From: an uncultured Shewanella sp.
GTDB taxonomy: Bacteria > Pseudomonadota > Gammaproteobacteria > Enterobacterales > Shewanellaceae
Length of the DNA: 64,000 bases
NCBI RefSeq assembly: GCF_947497935.1
Contig: NZ_CANMIO010000017.1
Coordinates: forward strand, 14,561-78,560
Reading direction: 5' to 3'
Part shown: positions 33,465-40,735 of the stretch, piece after piece
Position numbering within the stretch: the stretch's first letter is position 1
How the letters are laid out: the number at the start of each line of letters is the position of its first letter
Made by a program: the position numbers and the translations under genes
Notes under the pieces: generated by a model
What the model was told of the DNA's origin: nothing
What the model saw: the letters and a program-made list of their open reading frames with translations, nothing else
The model's database searches: none

Positions 33465-35702
33465 ATGAGCATAAGAACACAACTAAAAAAAATATTGCCA
33501 AGCATTTCTACCACAGAACAAGAAGCACTCGATGCCGGTGATGTGTGGTTAGAAGGTTCGATTTATCAAGGTGTACCTGACTTTGCAGCCCTACGTGATA
33601 TCCCCGTTGCAACGCTATCGAACGACGAACAGGCATTCCTAGATGGTCCCGTGGCGACCTTACTAGAGATGGTGGATGACTTTGAGATCCAGCGCAGCAC
33701 CCACCTTCCCGAAAACATTCTTAACTTCCTAAAAGAAAATAAATTTTTCTCACTGATTATTCCAAAATCTTTCGGCGGTCTCGAGTTTAGTCCCTATGCA
33801 AACTCGACGATTGTGGCGACCATTGCCGCTAAAAGTTCGGCGGTTGCGGTCACAGTGATGGTGCCAAACTCTCTCGGTCCAGGTGAATTATTGATGCACT
33901 ACGGCACCTCTGAGCAGCAAGATTACTGGTTACCTCGCCTAGCTAACGGTCAAGAGATCCCTTGTTTTGCACTCACTAGCCCTGAGGCGGGTTCAGATGC
34001 CGGCGGGATCCCGGATATCGGTACTGTAACCATGGGTGAATACCAAGGTGAACAAGTATTGGGCATGAGCGTAACTTGGGATAAGCGTTATATCACCCTA
34101 GCACCAATCGCCAGCGTATTAGGTTTAGCCTTTAAAGTAGAAGATCCAAACGGCCTATTGGGCGACAAAGAACAGCTAGGCATTACCTGTGCGCTTATTC
34201 CTAGGTCACACCCTGGCGTGCAACTAGGTAATCGCCATGATCCTATGGGCATTCGCTTTTACAACGGTACGACCCGTGGCGAAAATGTGTTCATCCCGAT
34301 GGACTTCATCATAGGTGGCCAAAAGAATATTGGCCGCGGCTGGGCAATGCTGGTTGCCTGTCTTGGTGCAGGACGCGGTATTTCACTGCCAGCCCTTGGC
34401 GTGTCAGTGAGTCAGGCCTCATTTAAGTCTTCTGCTGAGTACGCTGCAGTGCGTGAGCAGTTTGGCCTATCGATTGGAAAGTTTGAGGGTATTCAAGAAA
34501 AGCTTGCTGATATTGCCGGTAAAACCTACCTGCAAGAAGCGATGCGTGTACTCACCACTGAGGGGCTAGGATTAGGCTTAAAACCATCTGTTGTCACCGC
34601 AATCGCCAAGTATCACATGACAGAGCTTGGCCGAGATGTGCTCGACTCGGCAATGGATATCCAAGCGGGTAAGGCGATTCAATGCGGCCCACAAAACACC
34701 TTAGCCTCAGGCTATGTGGCGCAACCGATTGCGATCACCGTAGAAGGCGCGAACATCTTGACCCGTAACCTGATGATTTTCGGTCAAGGCGTCATGCGTT
34801 GTCACCCATATCTACAGACTATGGTGGAGTCAATCCACTCAAACGAAAAAGGCGCTGACAAAGAGTTTAATGGCATCTTACGTAAAACTGTTAGTTACAG
34901 TGTCGGCAATAGCCTCCGCGCTTTTAAGCTTGGATTACTGCCTTTCACTGCTTCAGCAGACTCAACCCTTGCTGAAGTCAAACCTTACGAGCAATCGGTG
35001 CATAAGCTCGCCTCTAAGCTAGCGGTATATGCAGACTTCTCGTTACTGGTATTAGGTGGCAAGCTCAAGCAGGCAGAAATGCTGTCAGCGCGCCTAGGTG
35101 ATGTGATGAGCTATCTGTACGCTGCTATGGCATCTATTCGTTATTACGAGAAGAAGCTAACCGCTGTCGAGCGACAAGAAGCGGCGCCCTATTTCCATTA
35201 CGCAACGCGCTGGTCACTGTGTCAGGCAGAAAAAGCACTATTAGACTTCTTAGATAACTTCCCATCTTCAGCGACACGTAAGTTTATGCGTTTAATCACG
35301 GTTACTTACTCGGCTAAGATGCCAAAAATTAATGACAACTTGATACGCGAACTGGCTGAGCAAGCTCAGCTTAATACCGAGTTTAAGAAGAACCTGACGC
35401 ACCTAGTTAAGCCTATAGCAGGTGACGGTAACGACATTAATGAGCAAGCTTACCTTGCTAAAATCGAGTGTTTACCGCTACTGGCCAAAGTTAAAAAGGC
35501 GATTCGCGCCAAGACATTTAAGCCTGGTGTCAGATTCGCATTGACCTTAAATGCCGCACTTGAGGCTAAGGTGATCAGCGAAGCTGAGCATAAGCTACTG
35601 CAAGATTACAATCTTAAGCGTGAGCGTGCTATTCGTGTCGATGAGTTCGATTTTGATATGAATTTAATCAGCGACAAGCCAGACTTAAAGATCGCTAACT
35701 AA
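33465..35702 (+). CDS. fadE: Acyl-CoA dehydrogenase (FadE type)
   Basis: TEQEALDAG, PNSLGPGELL, CFALTSPEAGSDA, ITVEGANILTR. Confidence 0.95.
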   Translation: MSIRTQLKKILPSISTTEQEALDAGDVWLEGSIYQGVPDFAALRDIPVATLSNDEQAFLDGPVATLLEMVDDFEIQRSTHLPENILNFLKENKFFSLIIPKSFGGLEFSPYANSTIVATIAAKSSAVAVTVMVPNSLGPGELLMHYGTSEQQDYWLPRLANGQEIPCFALTSPEAGSDAGGIPDIGTVTMGEYQGEQVLGMSVTWDKRYITLAPIASVLGLAFKVEDPNGLLGDKEQLGITCALIPRSHPGVQLGNRHDPMGIRFYNGTTRGENVFIPMDFIIGGQKNIGRGWAMLVACLGAGRGISLPALGVSVSQASFKSSAEYAAVREQFGLSIGKFEGIQEKLADIAGKTYLQEAMRVLTTEGLGLGLKPSVVTAIAKYHMTELGRDVLDSAMDIQAGKAIQCGPQNTLASGYVAQPIAITVEGANILTRNLMIFGQGVMRCHPYLQTMVESIHSNEKGADKEFNGILRKTVSYSVGNSLRAFKLGLLPFTASADSTLAEVKPYEQSVHKLASKLAVYADFSLLVLGGKLKQAEMLSARLGDVMSYLYAAMASIRYYEKKLTAVERQEAAPYFHYATRWSLCQAEKALLDFLDNFPSSATRKFMRLITVTYSAKMPKINDNLIRELAEQAQLNTEFKKNLTHLVKPIAGDGNDINEQAYLAKIECLPLLAKVKKAIRAKTFKPGVRFALTLNAALEAKVISEAEHKLLQDYNLKRERAIRVDEFDFDMNLISDKPDLKIAN

Positions 35703-35750: not shown

Positions 35751-35776
35751 AAAAAGCCACCGCAAGGTGGTTTTTT
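35751..35776. terminator. Bidirectional-type terminator after fadE
   Basis: AAAAAGCCACC-GCAA-GGTGGTTTTTT. Confidence 0.85.
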
Positions 35777-35878
35777 AGCTTCGAAATAAGCTAAATAAAT
35801 TTCTTGTGGGGAAGGTGTTACCAAGTAGCGTGTTCGAACTGGCAGTTTCGTAGTTTTCAATCGCCTCCAGCGGGGTAT

Positions 35879-35968
35879 GTGCAGACACTGCTGCGAGACG
35901 CTGTGAATATGTCCCTATACGCTCTGCGGTTTCATCCCTGAAACCGAAGCCCGCAGCCGTATCTACAC
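35879..35968 (+). repeat. 90-bp foldback REP/MITE-like intergenic element, copy 1
   Basis: Ends GTGCAGAC.../...GTATCTACAC; internal hairpin GGTTTCATCCCTGAAACC; core 35920-35959 matches copy 2 inverted at 39/40. Confidence 0.8.
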
Positions 35969-36431
35969 GGGATAATTGGTGGAACCTTTTGGCTGTAGCT
36001 GTTCGGTTTCTAACTTGAAAATGCCCCAAAGTTAGCTAGGAAATAAGTTTGTTTACACCTGCTTATCAGCTTCGGCAATAATTAAGCTAATGAGAGGCGC
36101 AAAATTCAAGACTAGCGTCTGAGTTATCATATGGGCCGCAGCCTAGTGACTTTGTTCTTTATTCTTTAATAGCGTCTAGCTGCATCTGAAATTACTTAAC
36201 TCAATTGTTAACTATACCCTTATTGTGACTTATTCTCCTGAGTGAGCAATGCAATTTGAGCATTGATTGAGGTTCTTGGTTTCATTCAAAAACAGAAACT
36301 GGGGGAGAGATTCTTCTACATCATAACTCATTGTTAACAAATTGGTTTGCTGTTATTCTTGAGCCAATAAAGTACTGGCACCTGTTCTTATTAAGACCGT
36401 TCTTATTCTGAGTTCAAACTGATATACTTTT

Positions 36432-36773
36432 ATGCTTTTTATACATTTCGGAGGAAATTTGAGGCTATTCGTAACGAGTAAAGCAGGTAAAAAGATTTAC
36501 CTTCAAATGACAGCTCTTACTAAAAGAGAGCTCATGAATAAAATTGGCGGGCATAAATTTACTCTCGAGGGCAAGTTGTACACTGTTAGTAACGTAAAAG
36601 CTGAACCATCGAATGAGAATGCTGCCGTTTCAATGGTCATTGGCGGAGCCATAGGTCTTCTTGGTGGAGTGGCTGGTGTTCTAGCTGGAGGAGTTCTTGG
36701 CGGATTCTTTGGAAACGAAAAAGATAAGAAGGATATTCTTATGGTTGAGCGTTTCAATGGGAGTAAGTCGTGA
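36432..36773 (+). CDS. Hypothetical protein with glycine-zipper-like hydrophobic segment (cassette ORF)
   Basis: VIGGAIGLLGGVAGVLAGGVLGGFFG; likely TTG start at 36459 after GGAGG. Confidence 0.65.
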   Translation: MLFIHFGGNLRLFVTSKAGKKIYLQMTALTKRELMNKIGGHKFTLEGKLYTVSNVKAEPSNENAAVSMVIGGAIGLLGGVAGVLAGGVLGGFFGNEKDKKDILMVERFNGSKS

Positions 36774-37240
36774 ACATAAAGGTTTTAGGGGCAGCAAGTA
36801 TCCTTGCTGTAATTTGCTTCTTTTTTACAGCAAATCAAGATTCTGCAATGCAGTATATTCGGGAATTTTTAGAGTCTGGGTACCTGATGATAATTTGCTT
36901 GGTTTTTGTTGTAGTTTCTATTTTATGCCACGCTATTTTTGTTCCTGAATCAAACTTAGATGTTCCGATGTTCAAGAGTAATCAGATGTGGATTCTTGAG
37001 GTTATTGTGAATATTGCGACGTATGCGGCAGTAACATCAACAGCAATTACCCTATTGAAAGCTATCTATATTCAGAAGTTTTACGGTGACATACAGTATT
37101 TTCACCAATTTGAAAGTTATGATATTTATACGATGTTCGCGGTGAGCGGTGTACTTCTTTGGTTCTCGATGTTCAAGTGTTGGCAATTGTTTTACGAAGC
37201 ATTAAAAACAACAGAAAGTGCAAAAGTACAAAAAGCGTAA
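36770..37240 (+). CDS. Hypothetical multi-pass membrane protein (cassette ORF)
   Basis: About 3-4 hydrophobic segments; GTGA overlap with the previous ORF; stop codon lies inside the attC 1L site. Confidence 0.75.
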   Translation: MNIKVLGAASILAVICFFFTANQDSAMQYIREFLESGYLMIICLVFVVVSILCHAIFVPESNLDVPMFKSNQMWILEVIVNIATYAAVTSTAITLLKAIYIQKFYGDIQYFHQFESYDIYTMFAVSGVLLWFSMFKCWQLFYEALKTTESAKVQKA

Positions 37241-37328
37241 CAAGTTGCTCAATTGGGATAAAAACCTTCGGCACTTTTCGCTGCGCTTAAGTTAACCCAT
37301 TTTTTTGCTCATTAGCAAAGCGTTAGGC
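37235..37328 (+). other. Integron attC site (94 bp)
   Basis: GCGTAAC (1L) ... TTGCTCAAT / ATTAGCAA pairing with an extrahelical C ... GTTAGGC (1R). Confidence 0.85.
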
Positions 37329-37341
37329 CAAAAGGATAATT

Positions 37342-38106
37342 ATGGAGTTCTTAAAAGGAGCAAAGGATTTTGCAAGGAACCCACTGGGTATTGTTGCCCT
37401 ATTTATATCTTTGATTTATGGGTTTGCTTCACTACTGCTTGGGGCGTCAGCAGACAAGTTAGAGTCGTTAGAACGTTGGCCTTTGCTTGTTTTCGTTGTC
37501 ACTTTTCCATTTGTAGTACTTTATGTTTTTTACAAATTGGTTACGGAGCATCATGGAAAGCTATATAGCCCCGGTGACTACAAAGATGATGACTCATTTC
37601 TTAGAACTTTATCTCCAGAAGAAAAAGAAAAGAAATTGGAAAATGACGCTAAAGAAGCCACTGGGGATGTCTTTATTGAGAAAGCTCAACCAAGTCAAAG
37701 GGCATCGTTCTCAGCAACTAAAACACGCATTCAACAAGCCGAGAAACATGTTATTAATATGCTTTCCGCCGAATTGGGGGTTACTCCTAATATTGACGTG
37801 CAGATAAGTACTGAGAAATACACCTTCGATGCAGCATATTTTAAACCAGGGTCAAGCGCCACAATACTTGAGGTTAAATATTACTCACAACCAAGAATTA
37901 CGTTCAAAGCAGTACAAGAATTTGTTTATCGAGCAAAGCTGGCTGCTGAATACATGACGATAGATACCAAATTTATACTTGCTTTGGTTCTTGACGGTGA
38001 TACCGATAAATTCCAACTGATCGCTGACGCATGGTCAAAATCTCTAGAAGACTCTGGTCTAAATATTGAGTTGAGGGTTATAAGCGGAGAGGAAGTCAGT
38101 GCCTAA
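37342..38106 (+). CDS. Cassette ORF: two N-terminal TM helices plus a PD-(D/E)xK-like C-terminal region
   Basis: Begins after GTTAGGC and ends in GCCTAAC (exact complement); FDAAYFKPGSSATILEVKY motif. Confidence 0.75.
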   Translation: MEFLKGAKDFARNPLGIVALFISLIYGFASLLLGASADKLESLERWPLLVFVVTFPFVVLYVFYKLVTEHHGKLYSPGDYKDDDSFLRTLSPEEKEKKLENDAKEATGDVFIEKAQPSQRASFSATKTRIQQAEKHVINMLSAELGVTPNIDVQISTEKYTFDAAYFKPGSSATILEVKYYSQPRITFKAVQEFVYRAKLAAEYMTIDTKFILALVLDGDTDKFQLIADAWSKSLEDSGLNIELRVISGEEVSA

Positions 38107-38163
38107 CTAAGCCAGCCATAGGGACTTCCACACTGCGTGATCCAGCTCCTGGTGGCGTCAGGC
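38101..38163 (+). other. Degenerate short attC site (63 bp)
   Basis: GCCTAAC ... GTCAGGC (GTT changed to GTC) with imperfect internal symmetry, followed by AAAAGGAG and ATG as after the first attC. Confidence 0.55.
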
Positions 38164-38176
38164 AAAAGGAGAAAGT

Positions 38177-38557
38177 ATGAAGATCGAAGTACTCGAAGAG
38201 CCATTGTATGCAGGTGCTATAGCGTGTGAGACCGGTGCATTCAGAAAATGGCTGAAGATAAAGCACCCTGACGTCGAGGTAATCACTCCCTATGAAACAA
38301 ACAAGGTAGATCTACACGATTTTACTCTGGTTATGCCATTAGTTCAGTTGATTACTGATGGCTCAGTTCTTAGCTATCTGAACTTAGTTTTAGAATACTC
38401 AAACTATTACTTTTCATATATATGGGGTCAGAGTAAACTTTATTTGAGAACCATATTTTTCCTCATCCCACGCCCTAGCTTTAGGCTCCTTGCTCTAACG
38501 TATTTCTCTCCAAAAATAAGTTTGTACCATCCCAAGAGAGATAACTTGGTAAGTTGA
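38177..38557 (+). pseudogene. Probable truncated cassette ORF
   Basis: Strong RBS and start after the attC; the C-terminal part after about 38400 looks like read-through into non-coding sequence; no closing attC. Confidence 0.45.
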
Positions 38558-38565
38558 ATAATCAG

Positions 38566-38655
38566 ATGTCGCTGCGGCTGTGGGCTTCGGTTTCAGGGAT
38601 GAAACCGCAGAGCGGCCATGGATGGCTTTACAGCGTCCCACAGAAGTAGCGACAT
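38566..38655 (-). repeat. 90-bp foldback REP/MITE-like intergenic element, copy 2 (inverted relative to copy 1)
   Basis: ATGTCGCT.../...AGCGACAT ends; core 38575-38614. Confidence 0.8.
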
Positions 38656-38713
38656 GTGAACTGACTATCACCTTTCTTGATTCTGAACTGACTTATTACT
38701 CGCTAAACTCATC

Positions 38714-40735
38714 CTAAGGAGTGACAATATTAAACACACCTTTGGGTTTATCCAATGTAGAGAAGAAGCTGACTAAATCCAGCTTACTGCCCTCGATCTC
38801 AAGCTCATCAGAAAATAGCACCTCTTTCACTCCGGCTTTACCAATAATCAGATCGACAAACAGCTCATGGCTAATATTCAATGTGGCGTTAGCCTTAGCC
38901 GACTTAGGCGCGAGTTTATGATGCAACACGGCATTTTTAAGGCTTAAAACATAGTTTTGCTCAAGGTCGATAAAGTAAATGTTTAGCTCAAACTCCTCAC
39001 CAAATGCTTCAGGCCCAATCACTCTGGTCGCCATCGACTGCATAAAATTATCGAGCGGTGAATGAAGTAAAATAGACTTCATCGACGCGAGATCGATGCC
39101 CTTTTCAGGGCTACCGTGACGCAGCTCATAGGCCGCCGTCAGATACACATCTCGCCATGGTGCAGACTCAGCTTGATAGCCCAACTGATCATAAATACTG
39201 GCAAGCAAAGCTTTAGCTTCATTATGCTTAGGTTCTGCCACCACTAAATGATTTACCAGCTCTGCCGCCCAGCGATACTCGCCAGCAGCAACAGCTTTGT
39301 TAGCCGCTGCTATGATTTTGTCAGCGCCGCCCATTAGCTCCACATATTTAACCGCTGATGCCGTTGCTGGTAGTGGATCTAGGTTAACTGGATTGGCGTC
39401 GTACCAGCCTAAATAAGCTTGGTATACCGCCTTGGCATTATGCTTGGCGGTGCCGTAATAACCGCGGGTGGCAAAGGTGTTAGAAAGTGACGGCGGCATC
39501 TGTATTTGCTCGGCAATTTCTGCGGGGGTGAGCCCAGCATTTAGCATCCGCACGGCTTGGTCGTGAATATATTTATAGGTGTCACGCTGCTTTTCTAAGA
39601 ACTCATTGACTCTCTCTTGGCCCCAAATGGGCCAATGGTGACTGCCAAAATAGACTTTGGTGTCTCGCTGAGAATTAAGGGCATCATCAATCGCACGGCT
39701 CCAAGTCAATGCATCACGCACCTTTGCACCACGTAACGTATACAAATTATGCATATTCTTAGAGACCAGCTCCGCACCGCAATAGGCTTGCTGCTCAGGC
39801 AGGTAAAAAGTAAATTCGGCTGGCGCCTCTGAGCCCGAGACAATTTGAAACTCAAACGGCACGCCATCAATCATCATAGATGAATCTTGTTCGACGACTA
39901 AGGTCGGACTCAAGATCCCAAACTGTCCAAATGCAGGCTCTTTACCCAGCCCCGAATCGATATGACCACGCTTTGATCGCGGTAATTGCTTGCCATACAT
40001 ATACATGGCGCGGCGACTCATGGCGGTCCCAGCGGTAACATTCTCACTGGTTGCCTCATGCATAAAGCCTGCAGGCGCAATAATATCAACACCTTCAAAG
40101 GGATCCTCTACTTGTGCATTCTCGTCTAACAAACCTAATGCGCCGCCGAAGTGATCCATATGACTATGGGTGAAGATAATCGCTGATACGGGGCGTGCTC
40201 CCAATGTCTTATTGAGAAACTCGAAGGCAACATTAGCCGTTTCTGCCGTGGTAAGCGGGTCGATAATAATCCAGCCGGTCTCTCCCTCAATCACTGTCAT
40301 GTTGGCTAAATCGAAGCCCCGCAACTGATAGACACCCTCTGTCACCTCAAACAGGCCGTCTATGTTGTTGAGACTCGCTTGACGCCAGAGGCTGGGGTTA
40401 ACGCTAGTAGGAGCTTCTCCCTTGATAAAATCATAAGCAGTTCTATCCCAGACTGTATTGCCCTCACTATCCAATACGGTTAGCTCATCCATTCTCGCAA
40501 TAAAGCCTCGTTTGGCATCTTCAAAATCTTGAACGTCATCGAAAGGCAATTGAGATCTCACGGCCTGATTAGCCGCGACCGTATGTAAACTCGCAGGCGT
40601 AAACCCTTCGCTATCAGCGACTAACGAGGAGAGTTCTGGGGATGTAATTTCAGGCTGGCACCCCAGTAGCAAGAGAGTCGTTACTCCTGCAAGCATATAA
40701 GGTTTGAGGGTCTTTTTTGTTGTTTTTTTTAGCAT
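38714..40735 (-). CDS. Alkyl/aryl sulfatase (SdsA1/BDS1 family, MBL fold), lipoprotein
   Basis: Lipobox LLGC; SLWRQA; RGFDLANM; THSHMDHFGG; HNLYTLRGA; C-terminal SCP2-like region. Confidence 0.93.
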   Translation of the reverse strand: MLKKTTKKTLKPYMLAGVTTLLLLGCQPEITSPELSSLVADSEGFTPASLHTVAANQAVRSQLPFDDVQDFEDAKRGFIARMDELTVLDSEGNTVWDRTAYDFIKGEAPTSVNPSLWRQASLNNIDGLFEVTEGVYQLRGFDLANMTVIEGETGWIIIDPLTTAETANVAFEFLNKTLGARPVSAIIFTHSHMDHFGGALGLLDENAQVEDPFEGVDIIAPAGFMHEATSENVTAGTAMSRRAMYMYGKQLPRSKRGHIDSGLGKEPAFGQFGILSPTLVVEQDSSMMIDGVPFEFQIVSGSEAPAEFTFYLPEQQAYCGAELVSKNMHNLYTLRGAKVRDALTWSRAIDDALNSQRDTKVYFGSHHWPIWGQERVNEFLEKQRDTYKYIHDQAVRMLNAGLTPAEIAEQIQMPPSLSNTFATRGYYGTAKHNAKAVYQAYLGWYDANPVNLDPLPATASAVKYVELMGGADKIIAAANKAVAAGEYRWAAELVNHLVVAEPKHNEAKALLASIYDQLGYQAESAPWRDVYLTAAYELRHGSPEKGIDLASMKSILLHSPLDNFMQSMATRVIGPEAFGEEFELNIYFIDLEQNYVLSLKNAVLHHKLAPKSAKANATLNISHELFVDLIIGKAGVKEVLFSDELEIEGSKLDLVSFFSTLDKPKGVFNIVTP

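Follow-up and report, generated by a model that had tools for sequence, protein, structure and literature searches.

How does an array of integron cassettes come to lie between two convergent genes of a Shewanella chromosome, with no integrase gene beside it and an inverted repeat on either side? The array occupies the spacer of ~3 kb between a fadE-type acyl-CoA dehydrogenase gene and an alkyl sulfatase gene in the stretch of DNA analysed here, a window of 64,000 nucleotides (C17:14561–78560, on contig C17 of a draft Shewanella assembly, G000, of 4.9 Mb in 79 contigs; positions without a contig name are those of the window). Most likely, this block is a satellite integron platform, without an integrase of its own, which was filled by the integron integrase IntI acting in trans and is now decaying, and we give this reading a probability of roughly 55%. 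From left to right, the block consists of an L-type foldback unit, a candidate orphan attI site (attI-B), a two-gene cassette with its attC1 site, a one-gene cassette with its attC2 site, the stump of a third cassette, a segment bearing a repetitive extragenic palindrome (REP), and an R-type foldback:

35775–36039, minus strand: L-type foldback unit of ~265 bp, limits from blastn, with its head TTGGGGCATTTTCAAGTTAGAA turned toward the cassettes
35875–35969, minus strand: structured core of the L-type unit, 105.1 bits with the foldback covariance model R2
36046–36438, plus strand: candidate orphan attI, 'attI-B', with a conserved core at 36225–36438 and two direct repeats GTTCTTATT
36430–37322, plus strand: cassette 1, with two genes (open reading frames ORF1 and ORF2), from the list of open reading frames and direct reading of the sequence
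37235–37328, plus strand: attC1, 94 nt, with R'' GCGTAAC at 37235–37241 over the ORF2 stop and R' GTTAGGC at 37322–37328; 38.9 bits with the attC covariance model R1
37323–38157, plus strand: cassette 2 (ORF3), the ORF3 homologue being a superintegron cassette in Vibrio vulnificus
38101–38163, plus strand: attC2, degenerate, 63 nt, with R'' GCCTAAC over the ORF3 stop and R' GTCAGGC (T to C)
38158–38417, plus strand: remnant of cassette 3 (ORF4, start at 38177)
38418–38531, plus strand: REP-bearing repeat segment, which holds GGGGTCAGAGTAAAC at 38424–38438
38565–38659, plus strand: R-type foldback, of another subfamily than the L-type unit; 101.7 bits with R2

The site at which the array begins is central to this reading. 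The attI1 site has two direct repeats, called DR1 and DR2, together with a simple site that ends in G↓TTRRRY (the arrow marks the crossover). Homologues of attI-B, at 73–81% identity, are present in 27 of 148 Shewanella species, with one to five copies in each. In an anchored alignment of 27 copies from ~22 species, the sequence is near-invariant through both GTTCTTATT repeats up to ...ATATACTG↓TTA and unrelated from there on, that is, conserved as far as the G↓TT crossover and then followed by variable cassettes, as is expected of an attI. The sequences downstream open with TTRRRY-like ends, which are followed by ribosome-binding sites and ORFs, and at 12 of 26 loci R1 detects a co-oriented attC no more than 1.5 kb downstream. 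In complete genomes that carry attI-B, intI lies 0.1–2 Mb away; the other hallmark of an attI, a position beside intI with a shared intI-Pc (cassette promoter) region, is not seen. We also considered that the element of 390 bp might be a copy of the attI of the resident integron or a remnant of intI, and both were ruled out by blastn. Judged from its sequence, 36046–36438 is a probable orphan attI.

The cassettes that follow are defined by their attC sites. An attC is an imperfect palindrome of 57–141 nt bounded by R'' (RYYYAAC) and R' (GTTRRRY) boxes and containing an L box with an extrahelical base, and IntI recombines such a site in the form of its folded bottom strand. With R'' GCGTAAC (one deviation), R' GTTAGGC, a length of 94 nt, and the L box TTGCT(C)AAT/ATTAGCAA, attC1 has this layout, and it shares with the attC sites of the resident integron on contig C7 the termini TAACAAG...GCGTTAGG and a sub-terminal hairpin. 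Because single-sequence folding of attC candidates was uninformative, we used a comparative model, R1, a home-made covariance model trained on the C7 integron of the same genome with its eight attC sites; the R-box pairs were entered manually, RNAalifold having missed the R box in the MAFFT alignment of these sites. The match of R1 to attC1 is full-length (E-value 8.5e-6 when the window is searched and 6.5e-4 with the full genome) and is the only one in the 64-kb window, where the runner-up scores 14 bits; genome-wide, ~20 other attC sites on further contigs score above it. R1 is not purely strain-specific, because it also recovers the attC sites of the V. vulnificus superintegron with E-values of ~1e-6.

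The second site, attC2, was spotted by eye. Its L box, GCCA(G)CCA/TGGTGGC, has one extrahelical G, the spacers of the site measure 3 and 0 nt, and the position of attC2 equals that of the attC in homologous cassettes. In V. vulnificus, the homologue of ORF3 is a cassette of a superintegron, flanked on both sides by attC sites and with R'' over its stop codon, and the stops of ORF2 and ORF3 lie in the same manner inside the R'' boxes of attC1 and attC2. In all, ORF3 has ~300 homologues with a patchy distribution over Vibrio, Aeromonas, Pseudoalteromonas, Halomonas, and others. At the right end of the array, the open frame of ORF4 runs to 38557 and thus continues into repeat DNA, and no attC remains for it; the third cassette was most likely cut off by the REP segment and the R-type foldback. 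The segment 38418–38531 has copies on contigs C19, C5, C7, and C13 and in other species.

Which integrase could have acted here? The window contig carries no intI, and the sole match in the genome above the cut-off of TIGR02249 is an intact IntI gene at C7:127213–128151 (369 bits against a cut-off of 265), the product of which is 84% identical to the IntI of S. waksmanii; synteny of the C7 integron with that species is confined to intI and attI. The window array therefore has no integron integrase within 4 kb, as the definition of a cluster of attC sites lacking an integrase (CALIN) demands. Upstream of intI, the C7 array has eight cassettes in the standard layout, with attC sites reading xxxTAACAAG...GGCGTTAxxx, and its attI (attI-A, ...GGATAATAAGCTG↓TTATGA) occurs in six genomic copies, including the intI-linked one. 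All five of the intI-less copies (C12:65338–65425, C5:113913–114002, C3:31420–31508, C35:20285–20372, and C3:142268–142353) lie between foldbacks, all but the one on C12 have an R1-detected attC nearby, and each is followed by different cassettes. From these five copies we deduced that integrase-less attI platforms with differing content are common in G000. The ends of the platforms at the C3, C35, C7, C12, and C5 loci are common to them at 89–98% identity, and their interiors differ.

Two further observations concern the C7 integron itself. The last attC of its array (C7:122702–122843, equal to L004:12703–12844) is apparently split by a REP segment of ~115 bp that is homologous to 38418–38531, which hints that this REP-bearing segment has attC sites as insertion targets. 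Just outside the integron region, on its distal side, C7:120473–121042 (L004:10474–11043) consists of three tandem repeats of 190 bp, the other two being 94% and 62% identical to the first.

What, then, are the repeats that bracket these arrays? A repeat search returned inverted arms at 35887–35977 and 38557–38647 (91 nt, 78% complementary), and R2 finds just two foldback copies in the window, of 95 nt each. The two arms have a core of 40 positions, CGGCTG[C/T]GGGCTTCGGTTTCAGGGATGAAACCGCAGAGCG, of which 39 are identical, and are ~80% identical over 81 nt, with different adjoining sequences. They belong to different subfamilies, and the two foldbacks do not match each other as the paired ends of one transposon would. 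The R-type foldback folds as DNA at −29.5 kcal/mol (z = −5.8). Across 18 diverse copies, the family structure comprises three helices with 29 base pairs, 19 of which show compensatory double changes; 97.5% of the alignment cells pair, against 26–45% in a control with the partners slid. By blastn there are 71 foldback loci in G000; with R2, members of the family turn up in 116 of 121 Shewanella species and, across the order, in 18 of 75 genera. The L-type is represented by ~10 copies that are 97–100% identical over 116 bp and often stand in tandem with a period of ~263 bp, and two such units lie directly past the 3′ end of the C7 intI.

Several features of the family stand apart from the question of the arrays. 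Neither the region nor repeat-rich loci matched any Rfam family above threshold; the one faint resemblance was to Ysr224, at 23–27 bits where the gathering score is 70. We rejected the idea that the ~263-bp L-type units are ORF-less cassettes with 'mini-attC' sites of 34 nt (CTAAC-N20-GTTAG at the junctions), since these are far too short, lack the usual spacing, and are not matched by R1. Two conserved G.U positions favour the strand on which the hairpin loops read A(N)GGA. The loops of both inner hairpins follow the pattern CA(N)GGAUG (ACAAGGATGT is one instance), which matches the CsrA/RsmA binding consensus, and immediately 3′ of the fold there is a third GGA. Going by these sequence features, the repeat might work as RNA, for instance as an element at 3′ ends or one that binds CsrA. 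A second small repeat (...GGTGAGAGATAAGGAAGTTATCAAGCTCTCGAACGAGAGGCATGGATGCCGAACTGGCTTTTTAGC...) is nested in foldback hairpin loops at C13:80110–80200, C7:670–760, C7:122460–122600, and C3:142060–142140.

The association of foldbacks with integron material is strong in this genome. Of the 71 loci, 27 have an attC or attI no more than 3 kb away, against an expectation of 1.25 (a ~20-fold excess; when restricted to convergent-gene spacers, the excess is an estimate only). Nearly every attC or attI cluster in G000, the intI array included, is bracketed by divergent foldbacks, a bracket that we count at ~9 arrays. Three other species have foldbacks at 13 of 20 attC clusters, with 7–15 kb examined around each, and several of these clusters have the same bracket, which is seen in G012, G023, and G003. 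A divergent foldback also stands at most 650 bp upstream of attI-B at 13–14 of 26 loci in many species, with its spacing and orientation conserved. In contrast, foldbacks were found at only two of 25 other Shewanella intI loci within flanks of 6 kb. Any role that we assign to the foldbacks at arrays is one that we infer.

A comparison with relatives separates the bracket from its content. The genes on either side of the block are the following:

33465–35702, plus strand: fadE-type acyl-CoA dehydrogenase, left flank (Pfam ACDH_C, 1.1e-71, and the Acyl-CoA_dh N, M, and C domains)
35757–35771: bidirectional terminator of fadE, from a terminator scan
38714–40735, minus strand: alkyl sulfatase, right flank, convergent with fadE (Pfam Alkyl_sulf_dimr, 1.5e-59, Alkyl_sulf_C, and Lactamase_B)

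G019 is the closest relative, with a fadE that is 82% identical. There, the orthologous spacer between fadE and the sulfatase gene contains an R-type foldback that is 98.9% identical to ours and a truncated L-like remnant, and the DNA between them carries an unrelated ORF of 200 aa and has no R1 match. Because this bracket surrounds unrelated DNA, it is independent of the cassettes of the window. A site empty of both repeats was not found in G019, and in more distant species no foldback lies within 1.5 kb of fadE.

The initial annotation had described most of the block correctly: the Pfam matches place fadE and the sulfatase gene on its two sides; its four ORFs all have the same orientation and cassette-like boundaries, in a spacer with a GC content of 0.33–0.42, compared with 0.45–0.52 in the flanks; it contains no intI; and the two inverted foldbacks of ~90 bp, the core of 39 in 40 positions, and one clear attC are borne out by R2, the alignment, and R1. 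The degenerate attC that it had proposed held up in part, in that the site can be read at 38101–38163 and its homologues belong to true cassettes; it is nevertheless missed by R1, and shuffled sequence folds with an energy just as good.

That annotation had further proposed that the array, bracketed as it is by inverted foldbacks, was captured or moved by a composite of REPs or MITEs (miniature transposable elements with inverted repeats) rather than by IntI. Its description of the array and bracket stands, and its mechanism is not supported: the arms differ, the REP around the one REP-associated tyrosine transposase (RAYT) is a different one, and IntI is intact. In this composite model, the foldbacks would be the ends of a compound element, the cassettes of which were moved in one piece by a transposase without IntI. 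The recurrence of the divergent bracket at so many arrays of G000 is in its favour, as are the C3, C35, and C7 arrays, in which both end segments are alike (89–98%) and the inner cassettes different, and the presence of a single RAYT in the genome together with a copy of its REP inside the bracket. Yet like ends with unlike contents also speak against the movement of a whole unit; the arms are of different subfamilies; the R arm and the L remnant of G019 surround unrelated DNA; and foldbacks are mostly absent within 6 kb of other Shewanella intI genes. Nor was a target-site duplication identifiable at the window locus, so that the signature of a composite MITE, two inverted copies of the same MITE enclosed by a target-site duplication, is not seen. 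As for the transposase, the RAYT-like Y1 transposase gene lies at C14:48076–48774 (L027:1453–2151; NCBIfam REP_Tyr_transpos, 70.6 bits against a cut-off of 80; Pfam Y1_Tnp, 58.9 bits). The 15-mer GGGGTCAGAGTAAAC, with ~23 genomic copies, is clustered around this gene, and one foldback lies ~0.8 kb from it in a non-equivalent orientation, which is not the arrangement of a REPIN, in which the repeat flanks the RAYT and has a common hairpin. The search for a RAYT that the initial annotation had suggested thus found one, flanked by the GGGGTCAGAGTAAAC REP and not by the foldback, and a RAYT link of the foldbacks is not supported. It had also named abundance of the repeats, and their presence at the site without the cassettes, as findings that would refute its proposal; the 71 loci, the spread over 116 of 121 species, and the G019 site are such findings. 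Because IntI of G000 is intact and its attC family matches attC1, capture independent of IntI is further disfavoured, and because the array begins at an attI-like site, IntI in trans is the simpler agent. We therefore hold composite transposition to be quite improbable.

Three other explanations make different use of the same repeats. The pairs of divergent foldbacks might serve as portable homology, by which a RecA-dependent double crossover or gene conversion swaps the interior, including modules of attI and cassettes, within a genome or after DNA uptake. This would agree with the common ends and unrelated interiors of the C3, C35, C7, C12, and C5 loci, with the difference in bracket content between G000 and G019, where the R arm is 98.9% identical and the flanking genes are 82% identical, and with the conservation across species of the module of foldback and attI-B. 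The arms are short for such exchange, however (~95–265 bp), the high conservation of the R arm could equally come from selection on its structure, and, because L and R are of different subfamilies, a donor would have to carry the same L/R pair, and no donor locus with the combination of L, attI-B, and R was found; we regard exchange as unlikely. If instead a complete integron had decayed in situ, losing intI by deletion and leaving its attI and cassettes, the L-type unit of the window would correspond to the L-type units past the 3′ end of the C7 intI, for it lies at the corresponding far side. Only ~6 bp separate the head of the L-type unit from the start of attI-B, however, and the window locus has no intI pseudogene; an IntI-like gene adjoins attI-B within 1.5 kb at none of 26 other loci (tblastn), and at locus L154 the gene that directly follows the element is 28% identical to IntI. 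These observations, together with the distances of intI from attI-B in complete genomes, make decay in situ very improbable. Mere coincidence, in which the spacers of convergent genes tolerate insertions and have gathered foldbacks and cassettes independently, accords with the convergent orientation of fadE and the sulfatase gene and with the gene order around full-length copies, 30 of 34 of which have a next gene that converges on them; we consider it very improbable, in view of the ~20-fold excess of foldbacks near attC and attI and of the spacing and orientation that they keep relative to attI-B in many species.

We therefore return to a satellite platform served by IntI in trans. An integron integrase working in trans, either the IntI encoded at C7:127213–128151 or a predecessor of it, would have inserted the cassettes singly into the orphan attI. 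The platform would now be inactive, since the crossover G of its attI is a T (36429; ACTTTTA in place of the consensus ACTG↓TTA), R' of attC2 reads GTC and not GTT, and the last attC has been lost. Several results weigh against this reading. The attI-B of the window is the most divergent copy of all, and its cassettes may therefore predate its decay or may have come in another way. The absence of IntI-like genes from the 26 loci counts here as well; intI was found somewhere in 21 of the 27 genomes with attI-B, and the other six gave no intI match. No convincing sigma-54 or sigma-70 promoter was found in the head of the L-type unit or in attI-B. In the array itself, R1 detects one attC only, and, by single-sequence DNA folding, the minimum free energy of attC1 is no better than that of shuffled sequence.

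The coding content of the block consists of four open frames, for none of which did Pfam, NCBIfam, or PADLOC return a family. The three that lie in cassettes 1 and 2 are as follows:

36460–36773, plus strand: ORF1, a glycine-zipper-like small membrane protein, with a TTG start after GGAGG and an alternative ATG at 36432
36770–37240, plus strand: ORF2, a membrane protein of 156 aa, the start of which overlaps the ORF1 stop
37342–38106, plus strand: ORF3, 254 aa, with N-terminal transmembrane helices and an uncharacterised C-terminal domain

The tail of ORF1 is glycine-zipper-like (...GGAIGLLGGVAGVLAGGVLGGFFG...), ORF2 is a multi-pass membrane protein, and the sole trace of a family for the two in Pfam was a sub-threshold Bacteriocin_IIc match; together they possibly form a two-gene cassette of the membrane toxin and immunity type. 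In an unrelated assembly, a homologue of ORF3 that is 72% identical (L128:3835–4584) is preceded by an Abi_2 gene and followed by a gene with an HNH domain, a setting that resembles a defence island. The RAYT-like gene on C14 has a duplicated 3′ portion and was apparently inserted beside a fragment of an IS110-like transposase gene.

What would such platforms mean? More broadly, Shewanella may carry an integron accessory of a kind not described before, namely self-contained satellite platforms without integrases, each made of a foldback unit and an orphan attI, that receive cassettes through an IntI encoded elsewhere and are dispersed or swapped through their brackets; we put this forward tentatively, as a possibility rather than as the expected outcome. 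If it is true, one integrase feeds many separately placed arrays, and some of the arrays scored as CALINs are active landing pads and not debris. Much of all integron material consists of CALINs, and how they originate is still debated, a question to which the orphan attI sites of G000 offer a testable alternative; if the integrase uses orphan attI sites in trans, integrase-less arrays would be working extensions of the integron and not relics. The foldback brackets, being so consistent, hint at a way in which platforms could be positioned, insulated, or swapped. The window copy itself looks decayed and suggests no obvious phenotype. In a limited search of full-text literature, we found no earlier description of a conserved multi-copy orphan attI or of a recurrent bracket of structured repeats.

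How does this locus compare with systems already described? The attI-B element resembles characterised attI sites in having two GTTCTTATT repeats upstream of CTG↓TTA and in losing its conservation at G↓TT; unlike them, it does not stand beside intI or its promoter in any of its 27 copies, and its presumed function is deduced from these features. Like REP/REPIN and ERIC (enterobacterial repetitive intergenic consensus) sequences (PMC3733652, PMC3337134), the foldback is an abundant intergenic hairpin found past the 3′ ends of genes, with compensatory changes and tandem clusters; in contrast to them, it is ~95 nt long with three helices, is part of a unit of ~263 bp, and does not flank the RAYT.

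In the integron mobilization units (IMUs) and the class 1 integrons with MITE brackets that occur in Acinetobacter and Enterobacter, two identical MITEs with target-site duplications enclose a single mobile unit. MITE-flanked integrons are already known (reviewed in PMC3575428), and the window bracket resembles them in its small non-coding inverted repeats on either side of integron material; it differs in that its arms come from two distinct subfamilies of a repeat spread over the genus, that no duplication could be identified, and that the bracket predates what it encloses. CALINs, and single attC sites without an integrase (SALINs), were defined by Cury et al. 2016 (PMC4889954), who proposed that CALINs may arise by loss of intI, by insertion at secondary sites, by rearrangement, or by an unknown process, and CALINs have been reported to be common in Shewanella (PMC9229058). 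Because only one attC of the window array passes R1, the array could be a SALIN under the strict rule that a CALIN needs two or more attC sites. Like CALINs and SALINs, it has attC cassettes far from intI, with IntI encoded elsewhere in the genome and one gene family shared with Vibrio superintegrons; unlike them, it starts with an attI-like site that is present in multiple copies across species, and it is enclosed in a bracket of structured repeats.

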